The notes under the pieces: generated by a model
Told to the model about the DNA's origin: nothing
What the model saw: only the letters and a program-made list of their open reading frames with translations
Database searches by the model: none
Shown: piece by piece, positions 1 through 54,823 of the stretch
Layout of the letters: the number at the start of each line of letters is the position of its first letter
How positions within the stretch are numbered: the first letter of the stretch is position 1
Made by a program: the position numbers and the translations under genes
IMG/VR virus record: IMGVR_UViG_3300045988_158467
Span: 1-54,823 of that record
DNA: 54,823 nucleotides
Source of the DNA: a virus
Direction: 5' to 3' (one strand)

Positions 1-109
1 TTTTTTTATGCTTGCTTTCTAATTCACTCAAAAAACTCTGAGATAAATTGCATTTTATAGCTAATTCCTTTTGTGTTAATCTTTGTTTTTTTCTTGCTTC
101 TTTTATCAT
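1..109 (-). CDS. XRE-family HTH protein, 5' part (gene wraps the window junction; continues at 54768 down to 54629; 82 aa in total)
   Basis: ATG at 109-107 preceded by GAGAGGAAAAATA RBS. Translation is MIKEARKKQRLTQKELAIKCNLSQSFLSELESKHKK..., a typical XRE helix-turn-helix. The frame continues uninterrupted into the 3' end of the window once the 55-bp overlap is removed. Confidence 0.75.
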   Translation of the reverse strand, partial: MIKEARKKQRLTQKELAIKCNLSQSFLSELESKHKK

Positions 110-6257: not shown

Positions 6258-7232
6258 ATGATTATCGATAAAAATATTGTTGAATTGTTTAAAAAGGCTC
6301 AAAAGGGAGATAGAGAGGCTGTAACAAGCATTGTTGAGGATAATATAGGGCTTGTATATAAGCAAGCAAAGAAATTCAAAGGTAAAGCAATAAGTTACGA
6401 TGATGCAATTCAAGTTGGAAGTCTAGGATTATTATATTCCATACAAAATTATGACCCAGAACTAGGAATAAAATTTTCAACTTATGCAACAAGCAATATA
6501 ATAGGTAAAATAATGCATACTATAAGAGACCATAGAGAAGATGTACCATTTAGAATACCTAGAAAAAATTTTGATGAATATAGACAAATCAAGCAAATTA
6601 GAAAAGAATTCGAGAAAATACAAAGAGAACCCACACTAAAAGAAATGTCAGAAATTATGGGAATAACAATCGAAGAAATTACAAAGACACTTCATCTTAT
6701 GGAAGGCAAAATTCCTATGGATAGCACAATGAGAGCATCTAAACATAAAACAAAGGCTGTAAAATTTTCAGAAACATTAGAAAGTAATAGCATATCAGAA
6801 GACCAAATAATTTTCAAAATAGACATCCCTAATGCTATTAATAAGCTACCAGAAAGGGAAAAATTAGTAATAATAAAAAGATTCTACGAAGAAAAAAGTC
6901 AGTCAGAGATTGGAAAAGAATTACAAACAAGTCAAGCACAAATTCACAGAATAGAAAAAATAGCACTGAAAAATCTAAAAGATATTTTGAACGGAAAGAA
7001 TATAGAAATATTGGACTTGGACAAGCCAGTAGCTAGAAAATACAAATATATAGATATGGCTACAACAGATTTAAGTTGCCTTACGGAGCGACAAAAGAAG
7101 TGTGTTGACTTAGTATTTGGCAAAGGACTAACACAAGCTGAGGCAGGCAAAATATTAGGTGCGAGTAAACACAATGTATATGCAGCAATAACAGAAGTAA
7201 TGAAGAAGTTAGAGAAAAAGAAAATTAGTTAA
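6258..7232 (+). CDS. sigma-70-family sigma factor (SigF/G/B-like regions 2-4) with an extra C-terminal sigma-4/LuxR-like HTH
   Basis: Region 2: NIGLVYKQAKKF...DDAIQVGSLGLLYSIQNYDPELGIKFSTYATSNIIGKI. Region 4: LPEREKLVIIKRFYEEKSQSEIGKELQTSQAQIHRIEKIALKNL. Then a second module: LTERQKKCVDLVFGKGLTQAEAGKILGASKHNVYAAI. Confidence 0.8.
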   Translation: MIIDKNIVELFKKAQKGDREAVTSIVEDNIGLVYKQAKKFKGKAISYDDAIQVGSLGLLYSIQNYDPELGIKFSTYATSNIIGKIMHTIRDHREDVPFRIPRKNFDEYRQIKQIRKEFEKIQREPTLKEMSEIMGITIEEITKTLHLMEGKIPMDSTMRASKHKTKAVKFSETLESNSISEDQIIFKIDIPNAINKLPEREKLVIIKRFYEEKSQSEIGKELQTSQAQIHRIEKIALKNLKDILNGKNIEILDLDKPVARKYKYIDMATTDLSCLTERQKKCVDLVFGKGLTQAEAGKILGASKHNVYAAITEVMKKLEKKKIS

Positions 7233-9285: not shown

Positions 9286-10345
9286 TAATTACAAAGTGCC
9301 ATTGTACAGTAATGTACATTGAAAATCCCGTTAACTAGAAAATTCTAGGTGTGTAGATAACGATAGTTTGGATAGGAAATGATTCATTAATATCTATGCT
9401 AACAGGGGAAGCCTAAGTTGAAAAATATGGTAATCCTGTGCTATTTATATTAAGTGTCTTATTGAATAAATACCCAATATATAATATAATTATATTGAGG
9501 TGATAATATGAAAAAAAATAATATAATCGGCAAAACATTTAAAAATAATGCTGGGCTTGAATTTGAAGTGATTAAAAAAGTTGAAAGAATAAAAACTGAA
9601 ACATACTATAAAATTAAATTTTTAAAAAGTGGAAGTGTAAAAAAAGCTGAAAAAAGGAATATAGTAAATGGAAGAGTTAGAGATGATTTTGATAAACATA
9701 TCTACGGTGTAGCTTGTAAAGGAAATGCAAGCACAGTAAAACCTTTAATTAATAAGATAGCCTTTAAAAGATGGTATGCAATGATTGAAAGATGTTATTG
9801 CAAAGATTCTATAAGTTATAAGTCATATGGCGATAAAGGTGTATTTGTAAATGAAAGATGGCTATGTTTTGAAAACTTCATATATGATTTAAAAAATATA
9901 AAAGGATTTGATTATAACAAATATATAGCAGGAGAAATACAATTAGATAAAGATTTAATTGAAAACGGAAATAAAGAATATTCCCTAGAGAAATGTATGT
10001 TTATAGATACTTTTAAAAATAAGTCATATGAACCAACCAAAAGAAAAGAATTTATAGCAATAAGTCCAGAAGGAAAAGAATTTATTTTTAATAATCAAAA
10101 TGAATGTGCTAGAACTTTTAATTTAACAGCTAGAACAATAAGTAAAGTTTTAGCAGGACAACTTAAAAGTCATAAAGGATGGACTTTTAAATATAAGTAG
10201 TCAAACGACTATCCTAATATGGAGTAGGGGCAAGGTGAAACTCCTTGCTTCGAAAAGCGGGAAGTCCTTTTTGGAAGGATTGTGATATAGTCTAATCCCA
10301 CTGATAAAAAAGTGTTAAAGTACTAGGAAACTAGGGGTATAAATG
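9286..10345 (+). mobile_element. Group I intron 1 (in the ThyX-like gene) carrying a homing-endonuclease ORF
   Basis: The 5' splice site follows U9285. Guide sequence TACAAA|GTGC (9290-9299) pairs with exon 2 TTTGTA (P10, 6 bp) and exon 1 GCAU (P1, with a U:G wobble). P7 halves are ACGACTA (10205-10211) and GATATAGTCT (10284-10293), like Tetrahymena AGACUA...GAUAUAGUC. A CTAG-GAAA-CTAG hairpin follows, and the terminal base is G10345. Confidence 0.8.
9508..10200 (+). CDS. intron-encoded putative homing endonuclease with NUMOD-like C-terminal HTH
   Basis: Lies wholly inside intron 1 and has its own GAGGTG RBS. The block W..MI.RC...YK.YG.KGV.V...W is shared with the HNH ORF at 25780. C-terminal FNNQNECARTFNLTARTISKVLAG. 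Confidence 0.6.
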   Translation: MKKNNIIGKTFKNNAGLEFEVIKKVERIKTETYYKIKFLKSGSVKKAEKRNIVNGRVRDDFDKHIYGVACKGNASTVKPLINKIAFKRWYAMIERCYCKDSISYKSYGDKGVFVNERWLCFENFIYDLKNIKGFDYNKYIAGEIQLDKDLIENGNKEYSLEKCMFIDTFKNKSYEPTKRKEFIAISPEGKEFIFNNQNECARTFNLTARTISKVLAGQLKSHKGWTFKYK

Positions 10346-12458: not shown

Positions 12459-13043
12459 ATGAGAAACTGTATATATAGATTAATTGGAGATAATAGACAA
12501 ATTCTTTATATTGGTAAAGCTAGTAATTTAAAGCAAAGATTGAGTAATCATATACATTTACCAGAAGGATGCTATGAGGAAACAAAAATAATTGAGTATC
12601 ATTCATTCCTTACAAAAGCAGATATGGATTTCGCTGAAAAGTATTATATAGCAAAGTATAAGCCTTTTTATAATGACTTATTAAAAGAAGATATAACAAT
12701 ACAAGTTGAGGAATTAGATGATGCTGAATTTATTCTATATAAAAAAACACAAAAAGGGAAAAGAAAAAATAAGAATAAAAACCTAATAAGAGAGGCTGAA
12801 CTATATATTAAATACAATTCTTTTGATAAGTATACTCTAGAAGATGGTATAACAAGATATAGAGTTCCTAAAGATATTATAGAAACTCTGGAAGAAAAAT
12901 TTAAAAATGTACACATTTACTATGATGGAACTGATGGAATTGTACTACATGGAGAACAATATGAACAAGTTTTTTATGGAGTATATTCTGAAGAATGTGA
13001 AGGCAAATTCTATGTATATTATGAAGATAAGCCACCATTTTAG
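12459..13043 (+). CDS. free-standing GIY-YIG nuclease
   Basis: CIYRLIGDNRQILYIGKASNLKQRLSNH...AEKYYIAKYKPFYN carries GIY...YIG...R...E...N motif spacing. Confidence 0.7.
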   Translation: MRNCIYRLIGDNRQILYIGKASNLKQRLSNHIHLPEGCYEETKIIEYHSFLTKADMDFAEKYYIAKYKPFYNDLLKEDITIQVEELDDAEFILYKKTQKGKRKNKNKNLIREAELYIKYNSFDKYTLEDGITRYRVPKDIIETLEEKFKNVHIYYDGTDGIVLHGEQYEQVFYGVYSEECEGKFYVYYEDKPPF

Positions 13044-14422: not shown

Positions 14423-14872
14423 ATGAGCTTGACAGCTAAACAAGAAAAATTTGTACAAGCATTAATAAGTGGCAAAAGTCAAAGAGTTGCATATAAAGAA
14501 GCTTATAATGCTGCTAATATGAAAGATGAAGTAATAGATGTTAGAGCTTCAGAATTACTTAAAAAGAGTAAGGTAAAGGTAAGGTATGAGGAATTATTAG
14601 AAGAACATAAGGAAAAAGCTTTATACACAAGAGAAGAAATGGTAAACGACTTAATTTGGGTAAAGGAAAAAGCTAAAGAGGATATAAATAATCCTAAAAA
14701 AGGACTAAGACAGGCGAATGGAACTATATTCATAAATGCAATAAAGGAATTGGGCGAACTTAATGAATTATATCCAGCAAAAAAACAAGATGTAAGTTTA
14801 AACGGTGAAATAAGTAATCCATATGCAAACTTCACTTATGAAGAATTAAAGAAAATGATAGACGAAGATTAG
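14423..14872 (+). CDS. terS: terminase small subunit (Terminase_2-like)
   Basis: MSLTAKQEKFVQALISGKSQRVAYKEAY... is the typical N-terminal HTH of this family. Directly upstream of terL. Confidence 0.75.
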   Translation: MSLTAKQEKFVQALISGKSQRVAYKEAYNAANMKDEVIDVRASELLKKSKVKVRYEELLEEHKEKALYTREEMVNDLIWVKEKAKEDINNPKKGLRQANGTIFINAIKELGELNELYPAKKQDVSLNGEISNPYANFTYEELKKMIDED

Positions 14873-14887
14873 GGAGGTGACGATGGG

Positions 14888-16280
14888 ATGGCAAATGAGA
14901 AATTAAAGAAATTAGGTGCAAGATGTGAATTAGCTCGCAGAAGCTTCTTTTGGTATTGCAATTTAAAAGCACCAGACTTTTATAAAACTAGCAGGGAGTA
15001 TTTAGTTAAATTATGCAATACATTTCAAGCGTTTTATGAAAGTAATGACGAAGTTATGATTATTAATATGCCTCCTCGTCACCGGCAAAAGTAGAACAGC
15101 ATCTTTATTTGTAGAATGGATATTAGGACAAAATAAACAAGAAAAAGTAATGACTGGAAGCTATAACGAGACATTATCAACTACATTTTCTAAAAACGTA
15201 AGAAATGATATACAAGAGGCAAAAGCAGATATATATAAGCCTGTATATAGTGATGTTTTCCCGGGCGTAAAAATAAAACGTGGTGATGGGTCCATGAACT
15301 TATGGAGCTTAGAAGGTGGATATAATAATTATTTAGCAACTTCACCAACAGGAACTGCAACTGGTTTTGGAGCTTCTATACTTGTTATAGATGATTTAAT
15401 TAAAAATGCTGAGGAAGCTCATAATGAAAATATAAAAGAAAAGCATTGGGAATGGTTTACTAATACAATGTTATCAAGATTAGAAGAAGGCGGAAAAATA
15501 ATAATTATTATGACTAGATGGGCAAGTAATGATCTAGCAGGAAAAGCATTAGAATTTTATAAAGAAGAAGGTAAAGAAGTAAATCATATCAATATGAAAG
15601 CATTACAAGATGATGGAACTATGTTATGCGATGAAGTCTTATCATTAAGAAGCTATGAATCTAAAATAAAAGCTATGGGTGAAGATATAGCTTCAGCTAA
15701 CTATCAACAAATACCAATAGATTTAAGAGGAGTTTTATATACTTCATTTAAAACTTATTCTGAATTGCCTCCATACTTCCAACAAATTAAAAACTACACA
15801 GATACAGCTGATACAGGAGATGACTATTTATGTAGTATCACTTATGGGATTTATAATGGAGAGGCTTATGTATTAGACGTAATATTTACAAAAGAAGCTA
15901 TGGAAATTACAGAAGATTTAACAGCCAAAATGTTATTTGATACACAATGTAATAGAGCTGATATAGAAAGCAATAATGGAGGTAGAGCATTTGCAAGAAA
16001 TATTCAAAGAATATTAAGAGAAAAGTATAATTCAAATAAATGTTATATCAAACCATTTCATCAATCTAAAAATAAGCAAGCTAGAATATACTCAAATTCT
16101 ACTTGGGTAATGCAACATATATATTTCCCAATAAACTGGAGAGATAGATGGTATGAGTTTTATAAAGATGTAGTGTCATATCAAAGAGAAGGTAAGAATA
16201 AGCATGATGATGCTGAAGATGTATTAACAGGAGTCGCAGAAAAATGTAATATAGGAATAGGAATAGGAATATTTAAATAG
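14888..16280 (+). CDS. terL: terminase large subunit, interrupted by a +1 frame break at about 15083
   Basis: Frame A (14888..15094) ends ...MIINMPPRH-RQK*. Frame A+1 continues GKSRTASLFVEWILGQNKQEKVMTGSYN... into ORF 15150..16280. Together they restore the Walker A PPRHGKS. The nuclease half is intact. Confidence 0.8.
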
Positions 16281-19381: not shown

Positions 19382-19643
19382 TATGAATGAACAACAATTT
19401 TTAGACTGGTGTAAATATGAAGTAGTAAAATATACAAATAGTCATCTAGATAAATCAGATAAAAAGGAAATAACAAAAGAAATATATTGACTAGGAGAAA
19501 ATAATGCGTTTTATAAACTTTATTAAAAAATTATTTTGTCAACATGAATATGAAATAGAATGTTACTTTCACGGTGATATGAAAAACTATGGTGCAGGAA
19601 TTGAGAGATGCAAAAAATGTGGGAAAGGTAAAGTGATTAAATA

Positions 19644-20201
19644 ATGAATTTATATTTTGATACTGAATTTACGGGACTACACAAGGAAACAACATTAATT
19701 AGTATAGGAATTATAAGTGAAAAAGGCGATAAATTTTATGCCGAATTAACTGATTATAATGATGAACAAGTAGATAATTGGTTACAAAAAAACGTAATAG
19801 ACAATTTAATTCTAACTAAACTGATAAATAAAAATTCACGCGAATTATATAAAAATAAAGAAAATTCAAACAAATATTCAATTAGTTGTAGAGGTGACAT
19901 TCATTATGTTTCAGATGAACTTAATAAATGGGTAGAACAATTTGATAAAGTAGAAATATGGTCAGATTGTCTAGCTTATGATTGGGTATTATTTAACCAT
20001 TTATTCGGTCATGCTTTTAATTTACCTAATAATATTTATTATATACCTTTTGATATTTGTACATTATTTAAAATTAAAGGAATTGATCCAGATATATCAA
20101 GAGAAGAATTTATCAATAATTCAGTAAAAGGTAAAAGACATAATAGCTTATATGATGCCAAGGTTATAAAAGCTTGTCATGAAAAATTAATAAAAATATA
20201 A
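19644..20201 (+). CDS. DEDDh 3'-5' exonuclease (DnaQ/RNase T-like)
   Basis: ExoI DTEFTG, ExoII SDCLAYDW, ExoIII HNSLYDAK. Confidence 0.7.
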   Translation: MNLYFDTEFTGLHKETTLISIGIISEKGDKFYAELTDYNDEQVDNWLQKNVIDNLILTKLINKNSRELYKNKENSNKYSISCRGDIHYVSDELNKWVEQFDKVEIWSDCLAYDWVLFNHLFGHAFNLPNNIYYIPFDICTLFKIKGIDPDISREEFINNSVKGKRHNSLYDAKVIKACHEKLIKI

Positions 20202-20221
20202 GTAAGACGGAAGTCATAGTA

Positions 20222-20246
20222 AAGGACAAATTACTGTCCTTTTTCA
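20222..20246 (+). terminator. Rho-independent terminator
   Basis: AAAGGACA/TGTCCTTT forms an 8-bp stem followed by a T-run. Confidence 0.55.
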
Positions 20247-20348
20247 TTGTCTTTTTTTAGTATTTACTAGACGTAAAAGAAGTAAATGCTGCTAAAATAA
20301 TTCGACAAGTAAAAGTCGTATAAAAACGTAAATTATGGAGGTATTAAA

Positions 20349-20966
20349 ATGAAAAGAATTTTTTTAAAAGAGCTAGGAATAGATAGTGAAGTTATAGATA
20401 AAATCATGAGCGAACATGGCAAGGATATCGAAAGATATAAATCTGAAATAGAAGATTACGCTTCTGAGATAAAAGAACTTAAAGCTAAAACTGTTGATTC
20501 AGAAAAAGCGATACAAGATGCTATATCTAAAAAAGAAGAAGAATTGAAACAAAAATATGCTGATAAAGAAAAAGAATTCAAAGAAATGCAAAAGAAAGCT
20601 GAAAAGGCAGAGGAGTATTCAAAAGAACTAGAGAGCTTAAAACAAGCTCAAAGTGATAGAGAATACACAGAAGCTATAAATAATTATTTCAATGATAACA
20701 AGATTGATTTTACAAGTAACTTTGCTAAAGAAGCTATACTTAGCAAATTTAAAGAAAAGAAATTTGAATTAAAAGATGGTAAATTTAGTGAAGATGCTTC
20801 TAAATTCATAGAAGAACTTAAAAAGAGTGATGAAGGAGCGTTCAAAATGACTGAACCGCCTAAAAATAATTCAAATACACAAACGTATCAATATACACCT
20901 AAGGGAACTAATACAGAAGATACAGATTCAATGTTGTCCCAAGTCAATTCTATTTTGGGATTATAA
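20349..20966 (+). CDS. scaffolding protein (GP20-like)
   Basis: Highly charged, coiled-coil, immediately upstream of the capsid gene. Confidence 0.7.
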   Translation: MKRIFLKELGIDSEVIDKIMSEHGKDIERYKSEIEDYASEIKELKAKTVDSEKAIQDAISKKEEELKQKYADKEKEFKEMQKKAEKAEEYSKELESLKQAQSDREYTEAINNYFNDNKIDFTSNFAKEAILSKFKEKKFELKDGKFSEDASKFIEELKKSDEGAFKMTEPPKNNSNTQTYQYTPKGTNTEDTDSMLSQVNSILGL

Positions 20967-20991
20967 TTAAATTTAAAAGGAGAGGATAAAC

Positions 20992-21357
20992 ATGACAGCT
21001 ATAAATACATTAGCTTATGCACAAATATTACAACAAGCTTTAGATCAAAAAGCAATACACACTTTATTAACAGGATGGATGGACTCAAATGCAGGACAAG
21101 TAAAATATACAGGTGGAAATGAAATAAAAGTACCTAAAATGTCAGTAGATGGATTAGGAGATTACAACAGAAGTGAAGCAGGAGCAGGATACACTTTAGG
21201 GGCTGTAAATTTAACATACCAAACATTAGAAATGACTCAAGATAGAGGCCGTAAATTCCAATTAGATGCTATGGATGTAGATGAAACTAACTTTGTTGCT
21301 ACTGCTACAAGTGTTATGAATGTCTTCCAAGAAGAGAAAGTCGTGCCAGAAATCGAT
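20992..21357 (+). CDS. major capsid protein, exon 1
   Basis: Follows the scaffold gene with an AGGAGAGG RBS. The ORF stops a few codons after ...EEKVVPEID, and the rest of the protein is 620 nt downstream in frame. Confidence 0.7.
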
Positions 21358-21977
21358 AAATTAAGTGTCGCTTAATATAGTAATATATTAATGAAAAGTT
21401 GGTGAACCTGTAAATGCAGGGTGTGTATACTACGTTTAGTAATTGCAGGATAATGGCAATTAAAGTATATGCTAACTGGGAAAACCTAAGTTATATATTT
21501 AAAATTATGTGTTATCATATATATGAGGGATAATTAAGGAAGTAGCTAGCCTTAATGATAAGAAAGTTATCCGAGCTTTCTTCCCTTTTACTTAATCGGA
21601 TTAATGCTATCGGAGGTGTTATTATTATGGCAGAAAAACTTTCTATTCAACAAGTTAGAAAATTTTGAAATTGTTAAAATGCATGATGAAATTAAAAATA
21701 AATTTTGTGAAGAACATAATATAACACTAATTAGAATCCCTTACTGGGAACGTAAAAATTTAAACATAATACTAAAAAGTATTTTTTAAATATATAATAT
21801 GGCAATCCAGTGCTAAGTCTACTATGTATAGTAGGAAAGTCAAACGACTAAATTGAGTTGAGATACTCTAAGAGGTTCAAGGCGAAATTCCTTGTCCCGT
21901 AGTGCCAACCACCCTTTATAGGGTGATGATATAGTCTACTCCCTTATTTAAATATCGGGAAACCGAGGGTATAAAGA
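21358..21977 (+). mobile_element. Group I intron 2 (in the major capsid gene) with a decayed HEG; boundaries +/-4 nt
   Basis: Guide TAAGT|GTCG (21362-21370) pairs with exon 2 GCTTA (P10) and exon 1 CGAU (P1, with a U:G wobble). P7 halves are ACGACTA (21844-21850) and GATATAGTCT (21928-21937). A TCGG-GAAA-CCGA hairpin is followed by GGGTATAAAGA, as in intron 1. Confidence 0.7.
21627..21789 (+). pseudogene. remnant of a PD-(D/E)xK-type homing endonuclease gene
   Basis: GGAGGTG RBS plus 13 codons (MAEKLSIQQVRKF*). After a frame change, ...DEIKNKFCEEHNITLIRIPYWERKNLNIIL matches the C-terminus of the intron-3 HEG (DNIKSEFAKQYKIKLIRIPYWEFNNIDKIL). The central ~240 codons are missing. Confidence 0.65.
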
Positions 21978-22556
21978 GCTTATAGACTTTCTAAATTAGC
22001 AACTATAGCTATGGCAGTTACAGGAGATGCAAATGTTGAATATGGATATACTCCAGCAGCAGCAACTGTATTAGCTAAAATAAAAGCTGGTATAAAAGTA
22101 ATAAGAGAAAAAGGATATCAAGGACAATTAGTAATACATGCTAACTATGATGTAGTTAATGAACTAGAATTAGCTTTATCAGGTAAAATAGCAACTACTA
22201 CTTTCTCTGTAAATGGAATAGATACACAAGTTCCATCTATAGATCAATGTCCAATAATACCAACTCCTGCAAATAGAATGTACTCAGCTATAACTTTATA
22301 TGATGGAGCAACAAGTGGACAAACAGCAGGAGGATATGTGAAAGGAACTGGAGCAAAAGATGTAAACTTCTTAATAGTTGCTTCAAATGTACCTATAGCA
22401 GTAACTAAACAAGATAAAATGAGAGTATTTTCACCTAATGTAAACCAAGAAGCGAATGCATGGGCTATGGACTACAGAAGATACCATGATTTATTTGTAT
22501 TAGATAATAAAAAAGAATTAGTATTTGCTAATATAAAAGATACTAAAACTGCATAA
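21978..22556 (+). CDS. major capsid protein, exon 2
   Basis: The frame is open from 21975 (RAYRLSKLATIAMAVTGD...). There is no RBS before the track's ATG 22011. It continues the exon 1 protein in frame. Confidence 0.7.
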   Translation, partial: AYRLSKLATIAMAVTGDANVEYGYTPAAATVLAKIKAGIKVIREKGYQGQLVIHANYDVVNELELALSGKIATTTFSVNGIDTQVPSIDQCPIIPTPANRMYSAITLYDGATSGQTAGGYVKGTGAKDVNFLIVASNVPIAVTKQDKMRVFSPNVNQEANAWAMDYRRYHDLFVLDNKKELVFANIKDTKTA

Positions 22557-22566
22557 GGTTTAAACC

Positions 22567-22812
22567 ATGATAGAACTAAAAAAAGATAATATTCATAGAG
22601 TAGTTGAAACAGATGAAGAAGCTAAAATGCTTATGAATAAAGGCTTTATATTAGTTGATATATCTAATATATCTAATGAAGATAAAAAATCTAATACAGA
22701 TATAGATTATTTAAAATTAAGTATTAAAGAATTGAAAAAGATAGCTAAAGAAAAAGGATTAGCTTATTCAAAATTAAGTAAAGAAGAATTAATAAAATTA
22801 TTAAAAAAATAA
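22567..22812 (+). CDS. small protein with Rho_N/SAP-like C-terminal motif
   Basis: LSIKELKKIAKEKGLAYSKLSKEELIKLLKK. Confidence 0.5.
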   Translation: MIELKKDNIHRVVETDEEAKMLMNKGFILVDISNISNEDKKSNTDIDYLKLSIKELKKIAKEKGLAYSKLSKEELIKLLKK

Positions 22813-22834
22813 GAGGGCTTTATGCCCTCTTTTA
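22811..22834 (+). terminator. Rho-independent terminator
   Basis: AAGAGGGC-tttat-GCCCTCTT followed by a T-run. Confidence 0.6.
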
Positions 22835-22853
22835 AAAAAGAGGGTGATAAAGT

Positions 22854-23267
22854 TTGATTGAAAATATTAAATTAATTATAGGACTAGAAAAAAATACTTA
22901 TGATGATTTAATTAGCTTCTATATTGATAAGGTAACCAAAAGAGTAAAAGGTTATTGTAATATAGAAGATTTTTTAGTTCTTCCACAGATAGATCAAGAT
23001 GCTATAAATGAATTTATAGAAGATAAAGTAGCTAATATAATGGCGTATAAATTAAGTTCTCTAGGGGAAGACATAGACGGCTCAGGAACTTCTACTCCAG
23101 CTAATCAAGGAGCTATAAAATCTATTACAAGAGGTAGTGTAAGAATAGAATACAACTATGATAGTGTATCATCAGAAAGCATAAGCAATTCCAGTACAAA
23201 AACATCCCCAGAATTAACAGACGAAGAAATGAAGATACTTAATAAGTACAGAAAATTAAGATTTTAG
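22854..23267 (+). CDS. head-tail connector (gp6-like, Phage_connect_1)
   Basis: TTG start after GAGGGTGA. Assignment rests on position and size in the head-completion block. Confidence 0.55.
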   Translation: MIENIKLIIGLEKNTYDDLISFYIDKVTKRVKGYCNIEDFLVLPQIDQDAINEFIEDKVANIMAYKLSSLGEDIDGSGTSTPANQGAIKSITRGSVRIEYNYDSVSSESISNSSTKTSPELTDEEMKILNKYRKLRF

Positions 23268-24606: not shown

Positions 24607-25692
24607 ATGGCTTTAGGATTACCAAGTATAAGCATTAAATTTATACAAGAAGGTATTACTGCTATAAGCAGAGGATCCAGAGGTATAGTTGCGATGATAA
24701 TAAAGGAAGAAAAAGCTATATCTCCTGCAACTATAGTTGATGTAACTGATATACCTAGCGATGTGACAGATAATAATAAGCAACTTATAACGAATGCTTT
24801 AATAGGAAATACAAGTGCACCACTAAGATTAGAACTATACATTATAAGTGGAGAATTAACTTTGCAGAATGCTTTAAGTCATTTTGAAAATACACAATTT
24901 GACTATTTATGCTACCCATCAGCTGTAGATGAAGATAAAACAGCAATAGTAACATGGATTAAATCGCAAAGAAATTTAGGGAATATGGTTAAGGCAGTAT
25001 TAGCTAATGAAACAGCTGATTATGAAGGAATAATAAATGTAACTCAAAGTGGAGTAGTTGTAGGAGAAAAAACTTATACTGCTGCTGAATTTACTGCAAG
25101 AGTTGCAGGATTAATAGCTGGAACAGATTTAAGAATGTCAACCACTTATACTTCTGTACCAGAAGTTGATTTGATACCTTATGAATCAAGAACTGAAACA
25201 ACTGAAAAAGTAGGGAAAGGCGAATTTATTCTTTATAAGGAATCAGGAAGAATAAAAGTGGCAAGAGGAGTAAACAGCTTAACTACTGTATCTGATACAA
25301 CTGTAACAGATATACAAAGCAAAGGTGATTTATTTCAAAAAATTAAGACTGTTGACATAATGGACTTAATAGCAAATGATATAAGAAAAACTGCAAGAGA
25401 TGCATATATTGGAAAATTAAGTAACAGTTATGATAATAAAATATTACTAATTACAGCTATCCATGGTTATTTTGATGGATTGATTAATGATGGACTAGTT
25501 GAAAAAAATACAGTAACAGTTGATATAGATATGGAAGAACAAAAGAAATACTTAAAATCAAATGGAGTTAGTATATCTACTATGAGCGATCAACAAATCA
25601 AAGAAGCTAACACAGGCGATCAGGTATTTATAGCAGTAGAATGTAAAATTCTTGATGCGATAGAAAGTATTTCGATTAGAGTATTTATATGA
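24607..25692 (+). CDS. contractile tail sheath protein (XkdK-like)
   Basis: Position before the tube gene, size 361 aa. The N-terminal MALGLPSISIKF...GSRGIV is typical of this sheath family. Confidence 0.7.
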   Translation: MALGLPSISIKFIQEGITAISRGSRGIVAMIIKEEKAISPATIVDVTDIPSDVTDNNKQLITNALIGNTSAPLRLELYIISGELTLQNALSHFENTQFDYLCYPSAVDEDKTAIVTWIKSQRNLGNMVKAVLANETADYEGIINVTQSGVVVGEKTYTAAEFTARVAGLIAGTDLRMSTTYTSVPEVDLIPYESRTETTEKVGKGEFILYKESGRIKVARGVNSLTTVSDTTVTDIQSKGDLFQKIKTVDIMDLIANDIRKTARDAYIGKLSNSYDNKILLITAIHGYFDGLINDGLVEKNTVTVDIDMEEQKKYLKSNGVSISTMSDQQIKEANTGDQVFIAVECKILDAIESISIRVFI

Positions 25693-48034: not shown

Positions 48035-48838
48035 TTATCTTATTAAGTCTAAGTCTTTTTCTATTGTAGGTAAAATCTCTTTTTCTTTTAAAAACTCATA
48101 CAAGAATAATCTTCCCTTTTGAGTCCATTTAGTAATAATGCTCACATCATCTCTTCCGTCTTTATGTTTATAATTTACTGTTTCAGAATGAGTATATCCC
48201 TTATTTTGATATTTTTTATATAAAAACCATTGATTACCTAATCTATATTGTATTTTAAAATCACAAAGTAATTTATTGAACTCTTGAGCAGACATTCCAT
48301 AATCTTTTGCTATTGATGTTACTTTGATTAATCCTTTATTTTGTAAAATTATATCTGTATAATGTGCTTTAGGTTTTAATACTTTTATTTCATCGTGTAG
48401 TGGTTCAGTTACTACTTTTTCAAAATCTTTGATTGCTATGGCTTGTTCTATATCTGTTCTTGAATTGATTATATTTAATATTGCTTGGTCGTGTTTTGTT
48501 AATTGTGGTTTTGGATTGAAATAATTTTCTTCTAATGCATCAAACATTTCCCATGCTTTATCAGTTCCTAACATTTTACAATGTCTACTTGCACCCCTCT
48601 TAGTCCATAGATATAGTGTTCTAGTTTTAGGTGATATTTGTAATTCGAAATTTTCTAGTCGCAAATTTTTAAGTTCTTCACCTTCGATTTTATAATAATG
48701 TTTGTCTTTTATAAATTTATCTTTGTTATTGTTGAAGTTTTGTTGTATTTGTAGTACATCACATTCATACACCTCAGCTAATATTTTAGTAGTTATAACA
48801 ACTTCCTCTTTGTAATTTATAGGTTTTAATTCTTTCAT
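48035..48838 (-). CDS. phage antirepressor (ORF6N/KilA-N-like N-terminal domain plus KilAC/ANT C-terminal domain)
   Basis: ...VITTKILAEVYECDVLQIQQNFNNNKDKF...YLWTKRGASRHCKMLGTDKAWEMFD... and ...VTSIAKDYGMSAQEFNKLL... Confidence 0.65.
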   Translation of the reverse strand: MKELKPINYKEEVVITTKILAEVYECDVLQIQQNFNNNKDKFIKDKHYYKIEGEELKNLRLENFELQISPKTRTLYLWTKRGASRHCKMLGTDKAWEMFDALEENYFNPKPQLTKHDQAILNIINSRTDIEQAIAIKDFEKVVTEPLHDEIKVLKPKAHYTDIILQNKGLIKVTSIAKDYGMSAQEFNKLLCDFKIQYRLGNQWFLYKKYQNKGYTHSETVNYKHKDGRDDVSIITKWTQKGRLFLYEFLKEKEILPTIEKDLDLIR

Positions 48839-53514: not shown

Positions 53515-54636
53515 TTACTTTTTAAATAGCATATCTTCCAAATTATCACTTGCTTTTTTATCCATTTCATCAAGTGTATGAGTATATATATTTAATGTGG
53601 TTCTTATATCTGAATGACCTAGTCTAGTTGATACTGTTTTTATATCTGTGCCAGCTGCAATTGATAGAGTAGCAGATGAATGCCTTAAATCATACATTCT
53701 AATTCTTCTTAAATCATATCTATTGCAAAATCTAGCAAATTGATGAAATAATGTATTCATTTTCCACATTTCCAATCTTGTATTTAAGCATACTAAATTA
53801 TACTGATTAAATAAAACACCATCATTTATTAGTCTATTTTGCCTTTCTTTCTCTTTTATCATTTTTTCAATTAAATAATTAGGTACAGTTATTATTCTTT
53901 TAGAATTCTCTGTTTTAGGATCTTTAAAATAAGAGTTTCCTTCAAGCTCATAAATACTTTTATTAACAAAAATAGTATTTTTTTCGAAATCAACATCATC
54001 CCAACTTAATGCCATAGCTTCACCTTTTCTAAGGCCTGCGAGTAACATTAACAATAAAGGTAATTCTAACGCTTTATTTTCTACACATTTAATAGCTTTT
54101 AATGCTTCTTCTTTGGTCCAACTGGTAGCCTTAACCTTGATGTTTTTTTTAGGAACTTTTATAAAATCTGTTATATTTTCACTTATTTCTTTAAATCTAT
54201 AAGCATCTCTTAAAACTACTCTAAGAGAAGCATAGCGAGCTTCTGCACTACTCCCCCCGTGTTCTTTATATATTTTATTTACCCATTGCTGTAATTGATA
54301 TACAGTCACATCATTTAATTTAGTATTCGTAAAAAAAGGCTCTATAGATACCTTTATGATGCTTTTTCTTTTCTTGATAGTATATGGGGATAAATTATTA
54401 GTATTATCTTCTAAAAATTTATAACATCTATCTACTAATGTTATATCTTTACTTATCACAAAGCTGTTTTTATTAATAGAACTTTTTAGATCAATAAGAT
54501 GTTTATCTGCTTCCTTTTTAGAATCATATTTGCCAACACTTTTTTGTTTTAGTTTCCCTTTTTCATCATAGTATTCAACTATAACATTATAATTGTTACC
54601 TCTCTTACGAATAAATGTGCTTTTTATATTATCCAA
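53515..54636 (-). CDS. int: tyrosine recombinase / phage integrase
   Basis: The C-terminal ...LRKGEAMALSWDD...RMYDLRHSSATL...LGHSDIRTTLNIYTH carries the R...H..R...Y catalytic signature. TTG start overlaps the XRE stop. Confidence 0.85.
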   Translation of the reverse strand: MDNIKSTFIRKRGNNYNVIVEYYDEKGKLKQKSVGKYDSKKEADKHLIDLKSSINKNSFVISKDITLVDRCYKFLEDNTNNLSPYTIKKRKSIIKVSIEPFFTNTKLNDVTVYQLQQWVNKIYKEHGGSSAEARYASLRVVLRDAYRFKEISENITDFIKVPKKNIKVKATSWTKEEALKAIKCVENKALELPLLLMLLAGLRKGEAMALSWDDVDFEKNTIFVNKSIYELEGNSYFKDPKTENSKRIITVPNYLIEKMIKEKERQNRLINDGVLFNQYNLVCLNTRLEMWKMNTLFHQFARFCNRYDLRRIRMYDLRHSSATLSIAAGTDIKTVSTRLGHSDIRTTLNIYTHTLDEMDKKASDNLEDMLFKK

Positions 54637-54823
54637 TCTTGAACACTCCTAGTTCTTCTGAAAATTCAACTTTATTCAATTCTTTATCTATAAGCCAATC
54701 ACTAAGTTCATAAGGACTTATTTTCAATTTATTTGAAATATTTATTATCTGCTTAATTGTCACATTCTTTTTTTTATGCTTGCTTTCTAATTCACTCAAA
54801 AAACTCTGAGATAAATTGCATTT
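54629..54823 (-). CDS. XRE-family HTH protein, 3' part (same gene as 1..109)
   Basis: Stop codon at 54629-54631. The frame is continuous with 1..109 after removing the duplicated 55 bp. Confidence 0.75.
   Translation of the reverse strand, partial: KCNLSQSFLSELESKHKKKNVTIKQIINISNKLKISPYELSDWLIDKELNKVEFSEELGVFKIG
54769..54823. repeat. 55-bp exact terminal redundancy with 1..55 (circular closure / assembly overlap)
   Basis: TTTTTTTATGCTTGCTTTCTAATTCACTCAAAAAACTCTGAGATAAATTGCATTT is present at both ends. Confidence 0.95.

Follow-up and report, generated by a model that had tools for sequence, protein, structure and literature searches.

The window, 54,823 nt of an IMG/VR virus record (IMGVR_UViG_3300045988_158467), has a 55-nt terminal direct repeat, an overlap that indicates a circular assembly. 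Its genes for an integrase, an anti-repressor, a tail sheath, a portal and a terminase characterize a temperate myovirus, and its G+C content is 29%; the host phage is a temperate, Clostridia-type gut myovirus. Two of its genes are interrupted by group I introns, a ThyX-like gene (thyX intron, positions 9286 to 10345) and the major capsid gene.

The capsid open reading frame (ORF) is in two parts, 20992 to 21357 and 21978 to 22556, with 620 nt between them. Exon 1 ends in ...EEKVVPEID, after which the unspliced genomic frame continues KLSVA to a stop, ending at 21375; exon 2 starts with AYRLSKLATIAMAVTGD (AYRLSKLA...) and has its stop at 22556. Joined, the two parts encode a 314-amino-acid (aa) protein with a single continuous match (E = 1e-102) to phrog_422, the major head protein, spanning residues 4 to 312 of the joined protein and profile positions 2 to 296 of 297. 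Coordinates and match agree with the original prediction of a split capsid ORF that resumes in frame 620 nt downstream.

Capsid junction and intron structure

The position of the insert was defined by protein homologues and by an intron-less sister allele. A search of 5.8 billion proteins retrieved 3822 relatives of the joined protein, the best 120 of which were aligned with it; all of these 120 are uninterrupted and have 306 to 316 aa. E120, D122, Y124, R125, and S127 are present in all 121 aligned sequences (the joined protein plus 120 homologues) and A123 in 120 of 121. The homologue consensus across the junction is PE[IVL]D-[A/T]YR, with zero indels in the 120 uninterrupted homologues. The intron-less sister allele (L141), whose protein is 92% identical, reads GAA ATA GAT/GCT TAT AGA without interruption. 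This allele and the homologue alignment delimit the inserted DNA as exactly 21358 to 21977 and place the insertion point between the Asp122 (GAU) and Ala123 (GCU) codons of the major capsid gene.

The last intron base is consequently A21977, located between G21976 and G21978. Shifted boundaries cannot reproduce GAU GCU, because an A follows exon 1 and an A precedes exon 2. The original prediction favored the junction 21357/21978, closed by A21977 rather than by G, and had allowed for a misplacement of a few nucleotides. Such a misplacement is excluded, and 21357/21978 is the sole junction that gives ...PEIDAYR... and matches the DNA of the intron-less allele; the comparison with intron-less homologues that was proposed as a check upholds it through both the 120 proteins and the L141 DNA. 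Reads of a message spliced at 21357/21978 are expected to show CCAGAAATCGAT/GCTTATAGACTT, and alternative junctions would give ...GATAGCTTATAG and ...GATCTTATAG. Five candidate products, spliced or mis-spliced, were sought by exact match in a 15-billion-protein collection; none was present, which counts neither way.

Profile searches and covariation identify the insert as a group I intron of the IA type, as had been predicted with regard to the group. At the gathering score, Rfam gave no match in the whole window, and a permissive whole-window scan detected neither intron; local scans alone detected them. In the local scan, the window copy scored 27 bits against Intron_gpI (RF00028; E = 1e-4), and an ORF-less allele from pig gut (L399) scored 52.1 bits against a gathering score of 50 (E = 1.9e-12). 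The low score of the window copy is explained by the remnant of an endonuclease ORF that interrupts P5, and the L399 core is that of the window intron except for a few loop substitutions. The IA assignment follows from the presence of P7.1 and P7.2, extra helices between P7 and the 3' strand of P3.

The helices (Table 1) are supported by comparison with related introns. P7, P7.2, P8, P9, and P9.1 were recovered by RNAalifold analysis of 30 family members, in which 14 of the 22 pairs vary in a compensatory way; each P7.2 pair has 6 to 12 such changes in 30 sequences. P4 covaries with that of the thyX intron (ACUGGG/UCCAGU here versus ACAGGG/UCCUGU in thyX). P2 of the thyX intron (AUUGUACA-GUAA-UGUACAUU) lies in the same place, and its pairing is preserved by compensatory changes. 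The distal P3 strands form a fully complementary 5-bp pair in 42 of the 71 related loci that have both flanking motifs, in 20 distinct combinations, and the proximal pairing UGCUA/UAGUG is considered probable. Overall, covariation of P3, P7.2, and P8 extends over more than 100 phage relatives. Counterparts of the peripheral hairpins occur in the thyX intron and in Enterococcus phage introns. The guanosine-binding pair of P7, G21846-C21936, is G-C in all 30 aligned family members, including the window intron.

The thyX intron is fully canonical, carries an I-HmuI-like endonuclease gene, and served as an internal control for reading P1 and P10. Its P1 is GCAU/GUGC, its P10 has 7 bp (UUACAAA/UUUGUAA), and it ends in ...GGGUAUAAAUG. 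The capsid intron contains every element predicted to be common to the two introns: ACGACTA, GATATAGTCT, a GAAA-capped hairpin (CGGGAAACCG), and a GGGTATAAA tail. The predicted pairings of the guide UAAGU/GUCG with exon 1 CGAU and exon 2 GCUUA were likewise located at 21357/21978. P1 (CGAU/GUCG) includes the pair U21357·G21367, and the thyX and Enterococcus phage introns are laid out alike. P10 (UAAGU/GCUUA) was found by an unconstrained minimum-free-energy (MFE) fold of the ORF-less allele; it directly adjoins P1 on the guide, and both helices name the same junction. A consistent P9.0 pairing was sought to fix the omega position, and the family tails (AAAGG, AAAUG, AAAAG) support no single pairing.

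Table 1. Predicted features of the split capsid gene and its intron (window coordinates)
Feature	Position	Strand	Basis
Capsid exon 1, 122 codons, ending ...VVPEID; last base U21357	20992..21357	+	Aligns to the N-terminal 122 residues of 120 uninterrupted homologues
P1 5' strand CGAU; U21357 forms the U·G wobble at the 5' splice site	21354..21357	+	Sequence; thyX intron likewise (GCAU/GUGC)
Group I intron, IA type, 620 nt, ending in A21977	21358..21977	+	Boundaries from L141 and homologue alignment; RF00028, 27 bits
Internal guide, P10 part UAAGU; partner exon 2 GCUUA, 21978-21982	21362..21366	+	Sequence; unconstrained MFE fold
Internal guide, P1 part GUCG	21367..21370	+	Sequence
P2 hairpin UUAAUAUA-GUAA-UAUAUUAA	21372..21391	+	Fold; thyX counterpart
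P3 distal 5' strand GUUGG; partner CCAAC, 21905-21909	21398..21402	+	Complementarity among related loci
Peripheral hairpins within P3 5' strand: CCUG..CAGG; GUAUAC..GUAUAU enclosing AAUUGC..GCAAUU	21407..21469	+	MFE fold
P3 proximal 5' strand UGCUA (probable pairing with UAGUG, 21900-21904), then P4 5' strand	21470..21480	+	Rfam alignment
P4 5' strand ACUGGG (P element); partner UCCAGU, 21806-21811	within 21470..21480	+	Rfam alignment
P5/P5a 5' strand CC...UUAUAUAUUU; partner 21788-21802 (AAAUAUAUAA..GG)	21485..21500	+	Sequence
Homing-endonuclease gene remnant, P5a loop	21501..21787	+	phrog_559, E = 9e-10
P4 3' strand (Q element, AAUCCAGUGC), P6, P6a hairpin CUACUAU-GU-AUAGUAG	21806..21840	+	Rfam alignment, fold
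P7 5' strand (R element, ACGACUA)	21844..21850	+	Family alignment
P7.1 (GAGU..ACUC), 21855-21868, and P7.2 (CAAGG-CGAAAUU-CCUUG), 21878-21894	21855..21894	+	P7.2 covariation
P3 3' strand UAGUG + CCAAC	21900..21909	+	Rfam alignment and P3 complementarity
P8 hairpin CACCCU-UUAU-AGGGUG	21910..21925	+	Compensatory changes at all four predicted pairs
S element and P7 3' strand (GAUAUAGUCU)	21927..21937	+	Rfam and family alignment
P9 (CCC/GGG), P9.1 hairpin CGGGAAACCG (21956-21965), tail GGGUAUAAAG	21938..21976	+	Kept in at least 121 related introns
Omega position, the final base of the intron: A (G in the aligned column of relatives)	21977..21977	+	Copy and family comparison
Capsid exon 2, AYRLSKLA... 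to stop; first five bases GCUUA are the P10 strand	21978..22556	+	Sequence and homologue alignment

The endonuclease ORF in a peripheral loop and the occurrence of intron-plus and intron-minus alleles mark the capsid intron as a mobile intron. Three intron forms occupy the one site: 1411 nt (L404, L432, and partial L431), 620 nt (window), and 347 nt (L399, positions 1228 to 1574). The intact 317-aa endonuclease of L404 and L432 matches phrog_559 (E = 4e-65), and the ORF is cleanly absent from the 347-nt form. Alignment shows that the 620-nt form lost 791 nt between two copies of TAGAAAATTT, the joint in the window copy being this 10-nt repeat (21656 to 21665), and this deletion in the endonuclease ORF means that the window copy is no longer autonomous. 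The start of the remnant, MAEKLSIQQVRKF followed by a stop, is at 21627, and the C-terminal fragment is the ORF from 21604 to 21789. Intron-minus capsid alleles (P0001 and P0124) coexist with the intron-plus alleles.

Mobile IA introns are common in Firmicutes phages, and the capsid intron has many relatives there. The 18-nt motif consisting of P9.1 and the tail occurs in at least 121 related introns in IMG/VR, and the 3' domain matches 243 records, from phages of Enterococcus, Listeria, Staphylococcus, and Bacillus. Where Enterococcus phage records were inspected, the match fell inside a large terminase gene that is split. The nearest known counterparts are phage IA introns with endonuclease genes, from these four groups and from T4 (td, nrdB, and nrdD), SPO1, and Twort. 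Like these, the capsid intron has ACGACUA and GAUAUAGUC in P7, P7.1/P7.2, a GAAA-capped P9.1, a GGGUAUAA tail, an endonuclease gene in a peripheral loop, and a U·G pair at the 5' splice site; unlike these, which end in G, it ends in A.

Terminal adenosine of the capsid intron

Textbook accounts hold that all group I introns end in a guanosine and that the second splicing step requires it; this guanosine is the one canonical group I feature absent from the capsid intron. The terminal A is present in every copy (L003 to L007, L138, L399, L404, L431, and L432), in at least 12 independent assemblies, which cover several capsid alleles and come from pig gut and human-associated samples. Five independent contigs of 54.7 to 58.3 kb, from different studies and assemblers, and one IMG/VR contig have the identical 3' end AAAGA/GCTTATAGA. 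All three intron forms end in ...GGGTATAAAGA/GCTTATAGA, with different exons and with ribozymes that differ from each other at about eight loop positions. The 127-aa product that consists of exon 1 and the intron tail is indexed in 109 assembly-collection blocks, and its protein cluster also contains diverged exon 1 copies with the same intron tail and intron-less full-length alleles. Nevertheless, the conservation of the A has a shallow evolutionary depth, since all intron copies are close relatives separated by about eight ribozyme substitutions. A protein-based IMG/VR scan of 80 loci added one more split-capsid copy and no diverged intron copies, and a loose 3'-junction pattern gave only chance matches in metagenome_contigs and genome_contigs.

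Of the 121 related introns, 112 have G in the aligned terminal column; in the remaining nine a G lies at most 2 bases away, and none reads AGA. L018, the closest relative, matches at 83% identity over the 3' domain, shares the endonuclease C terminus, and is located in a homologous capsid gene 24 codons upstream, with the canonical end AAAGG. With G-ended closest relatives at this identity, the intron clearly belongs to the family by descent, and the simplest history would be a G-to-A change at the last position in an ancestor of the capsid intron, retained since. No compensating change was found in P7, J6/7, or J8/7 in comparison with G-ended relatives, and J6/7 and J8/7 are identical to those of one such relative (L017). 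An adenosine-adapted pocket, with A-U in place of G-C in P7, was rejected, as the pair of the capsid intron is G-C.

Taken at the sequence level, these data make it likely that the junction used in vivo is 21357/21978, after an adenosine; splicing there is presumed to be efficient enough to supply capsid protein. The best-surviving alternative, though an improbable one, is that a neighboring G (G21976 or G21978) serves as the terminal G, so that the message is one base off and the capsid truncated, and that the element is defective or yields a little capsid through mis-splicing. Both bases flanking A21977 are indeed G, and either would be within geometrical reach given a family tail length of 10 to 13 nt. 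Exon ligation is held to require the terminal G (PMC3679873), and in a mutational library of a clostridial IStron all alternative 3' splice sites were G-ended (PMC13521648); both reports make G21976 and G21978 plausible competitors. In addition, the large terminase gene of this phage contains a frame break, which could be taken as a sign of decay. Nevertheless, use of G21976 would give GAU AGC UUA UAG and use of G21978 would give GAU CUU AUA GAC UUU CUA AAU UAG, so that either leads to a stop within 3 to 7 codons, and with either as the terminal base P10 is out of register. Rescue of a mis-spliced message by frameshifting was rejected, as GAU AGC offers neither a CGG codon nor a slippery site. 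Furthermore, the terminal A has outlasted decay and loss of the endonuclease gene, in several capsid alleles and many samples and beside intron-less alleles, and the terminase break, kept in two diverged alleles at the sole in-frame CGG among 54 long ORFs, resembles recoding rather than decay.

It is still less probable that both splice sites are shifted and a terminal G is kept. Junctions at 21353/21977 (...PEI-AYR), 21356/21977 (...PEIEAYR), and 21362/21977 (...PEIDKLAYR) are all in frame and would leave an intron ending at G21976. The first of these was the alternative put forward in the original prediction and is not supported, since it would drop the invariant Asp and P1 pairing is absent. 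More generally, shifted junctions conflict with an Asp122 that is invariant in 121 of 121 sequences, at a site with no indels; guide pairing is found at none of the shifted 5' sites, P10 is lost, and cleavage at 21356 would follow an A-U pair beside the canonical U·G pair. When every in-frame junction with a U-ended exon 1 and a G-ended intron was considered, guide pairing was absent and the invariant PEIDAYR was altered in all of them, and these junctions were rejected.

Absence of splicing, with the halves translated separately or the terminal A being a sequencing or assembly error, is hardly credible: ORF callers do give two products, of 127 and 181 aa, but the ATG at 22011 has no upstream ribosome-binding site, separate translation loses the 11 residues AYRLSKLATIA with the invariant A-Y-R and Ser127, and the same terminal base recurs in at least 12 assemblies from different assemblers and studies.

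Precedents and proposed splicing mechanism

The literature searched contained no A-ended phage or bacterial intron, and a natural terminal A was found only for the hexacoral mitochondrial ND5-717 intron. That intron ends in A, yet its exons are perfectly ligated in vivo; its splicing is less efficient than that of a neighboring canonical intron, and its authors suggested that the terminal A prevents 3'-site hydrolysis and circularization (PMC6545197, PMC8146996). Unlike the capsid intron, ND5-717 is mitochondrial, obligatory, and vertically inherited, holds whole mitochondrial genes in P8, and lacks an endonuclease gene. Its dependence on host factors is presumed, and its sequence and setting are unrelated to those of a mobile phage intron.

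The location of the capsid intron has precedents in phages. Group I introns in capsid genes are already known, e.g., in LittleE and Tuc2009, and the LittleE intron has an endonuclease gene inside it and splices efficiently (PMC3706429). As in mycobacteriophage LittleE and lactococcal phage Tuc2009, the major capsid gene is interrupted and late expression is expected to need splicing. What sets the capsid intron apart is its terminal A: by descent it is an ordinary phage group I intron, with one canonical feature missing.

An engineered precedent also exists: in work associated with Been and Perrotta (1991) and Michel et al. (1989), a Tetrahymena ribozyme with G264A:C311U and G414A is said to ligate exons after a terminal adenosine. 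In that ribozyme the binding pair was changed to A-U for adenosine, whereas the pair of the capsid intron is still G-C.

Splicing after A21977 could proceed as follows. The late transcript would fold, and exogenous guanosine, bound at G21846-C21936 of P7, would attack after U21357, at the 5' site marked by the U·G pair of P1; this first step would be standard. In the second step, the freed 3'-OH of U21357 would attack the A21977-G21978 bond, which P10 would align directly against P1. For this, an adenosine would have to occupy the guanosine pocket, with the pocket itself unaltered. The combination of a terminal A and an unaltered pocket suggests that the 3' site is chosen mainly through P10 and the geometry of the P9 tail, possibly with the aid of a protein; the contiguous P1-P10 helix, and possibly a protein, would replace positioning by recognition of the terminal G. 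The ligated message, ...GAU/GCU..., would be translated into the full 314-aa capsid protein.

A more speculative and rather doubtful proposal is that, because of the terminal A, exon ligation relies not on the pocket but on some other factor, for example docking driven by P10 or a protein of the phage or its host. Capsid synthesis would then be throttled or checked by the terminal A, which would also block 3'-site hydrolysis and intron circularization; together with the +1 break in the terminase gene, two defective-looking recoding steps would regulate essential late genes.

The capsid intron could reveal what allows a group I ribozyme to choose its 3' splice site and complete ligation there when no terminal G is present. 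The only other natural exception in the literature searched, ND5-717, is giant, host dependent, mitochondrial, and hard to study; the capsid intron is small, has an unaltered guanosine pocket and close G-ended relatives, and offers for experiments a natural 347-nt form without an ORF. In addition, it is located in an essential, highly expressed gene. The capsid will be annotated wrongly by tools that require a terminal G and by those that treat its halves as two genes.

Phage genomes and the terminase gene

The phage looks alive, a going concern, to judge from its genomes. Contigs of the 50- to 200-kb class are present in at least 24 sample blocks, and those that were read are 54.7 to 58.3 kb long; copies from different samples are circular permutations of one another within this size range, and the capsid block is identical in the circularly permuted copies. 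Neighboring structural genes are mosaic, with 43 synonymous versus 31 nonsynonymous changes in one copy (L003). A decaying prophage is accordingly a weakened explanation, given the circular assemblies, the mosaic but selected neighbors, and the conserved recoding site in the terminase gene.

The large terminase gene has a +1 frame break in its Walker A motif (...MPPRH / GKSRT; DNA CAC C GGC). The extra C is present in all eight IMG/VR contigs with the same allele and in all four ENA copies, and the break is common to a second allele that has 73 differences within the 302-nt tract spanning the site (14872 to 15173). The extra C creates the sole in-frame CGG codon among the 54 long ORFs counted (13,897 codons), and the break resembles programmed +1 frameshifting at a hungry codon more closely than it resembles decay.

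Lineage of the capsid intron and loss of its endonuclease gene

The intron most closely related to the capsid intron occupies a homologous major capsid gene in another IMG/VR virus (L018 1-620; IMGVR_UViG_3300050190_000058) and is inserted inside D|NETNF, 24 codons upstream of the site used in the window. The endonuclease of this relative is of the same type as that of the capsid intron, and its terminal G is canonical. The capsid family has therefore been entered at least twice by this intron lineage. Another group I intron from the family of the capsid intron interrupts a ThyX-like gene in the window, and the predicted spliced product of that gene matches Pfam Thy1. This second intron is canonical (P1 GCAU/GUGC, P10 of 7 bp, last base G10345), and the endonuclease gene in its P6 is intact.

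Comparison with L404, a copy whose 1411-nt capsid intron retains an intact endonuclease gene, shows that the gene in the window intron has lost 791 nt between two occurrences of the 10-nt repeat TAGAAAATTT (window 21656-21665), a deletion that inactivated it. A separate deletion in the pig gut form (L399) removed the whole endonuclease ORF and left a 347-nt ribozyme.

The scaffold-capsid block

Comparison of window 19635-23186 with four other contigs (L003, L005, L006, and L266) shows 100% identity across a scaffold-capsid block of at least 2.4 kb that surrounds the intron, and the blocks on both sides of it differ by 1 to 6% among those genomes. The pattern is consistent with a recent spread of the block by recombination or homing. 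Directly upstream of the scaffold protein gene, positions 20260-20330 (plus strand) match the Rfam GP20-b RNA motif below threshold (E, 0.012; 30.2 bits, with the gathering score at 36.2). In a scaffold with a related capsid allele (L433; ERZ28659121), a run of Ns falls exactly at the expected intron position and may reflect a mix of intron-plus and intron-minus reads in the sample.

Frame breaks in the large terminase gene

The large terminase gene is interrupted inside its Walker A motif, where one frame ends in ...IINMPPRH and the next frame continues with GKSRTASLFVEW... (DNA, CAC C GGC AAA). The extra C was present in all 8 IMG/VR contigs and all 4 ENA contigs with this allele and likewise in a second allele, which differs at 73 positions in a 302-nt tract (14872-15173); more distant relatives read CAC GGC in frame. 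The codon CGG is absent elsewhere from 54 ORFs (13,897 codons). One possible reading of the break is programmed +1 frameshifting at a hungry codon, for which no precedent in a terminase was found in the literature searched.

In a variant of the window phage (L318 and L319), the small and large terminase genes are separated by a gene for a GIY-YIG/NUMOD3 homing endonuclease (L318 2978-4100; ERZ27272292). The start of the variant's large terminase gene bears a divergent tract of ~300 nt, which looks like co-conversion. The same variant has a second frame break, ACC CG GGG TCA, with CGG once more in frame, after which the original frame is regained. The window shares its 194-aa GIY-YIG-like ORF, another present-or-absent nuclease gene, with some variants, and contig L317 lacks it.

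Genome completeness and gene content

A 55-nt direct repeat at the termini (window 1-55 and 54769-54823) is the overlap from circular assembly, and the window is thus a complete circular genome of ~54.77 kb.

Features of the window, with coordinates
Feature	Coordinates	Strand	Remarks
Sigma factor	6258-7232		
Second group I intron	9286-10345		Same family as capsid intron; in ThyX-like gene
I-HmuI/NUMOD-like endonuclease gene	9508-10200		Intact, 230 aa; in P6 of thyX intron
GIY-YIG-like ORF	12459-13043		Free-standing, 194 aa
Large terminase gene	14888-16280		+1 frame break at 15080-15094, inside Walker A motif
Scaffold protein gene	20349-20966		
Tail sheath protein	24607-25692		
Anti-repressor	48035-48838	Minus	
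Integrase	53515-54636	Minus
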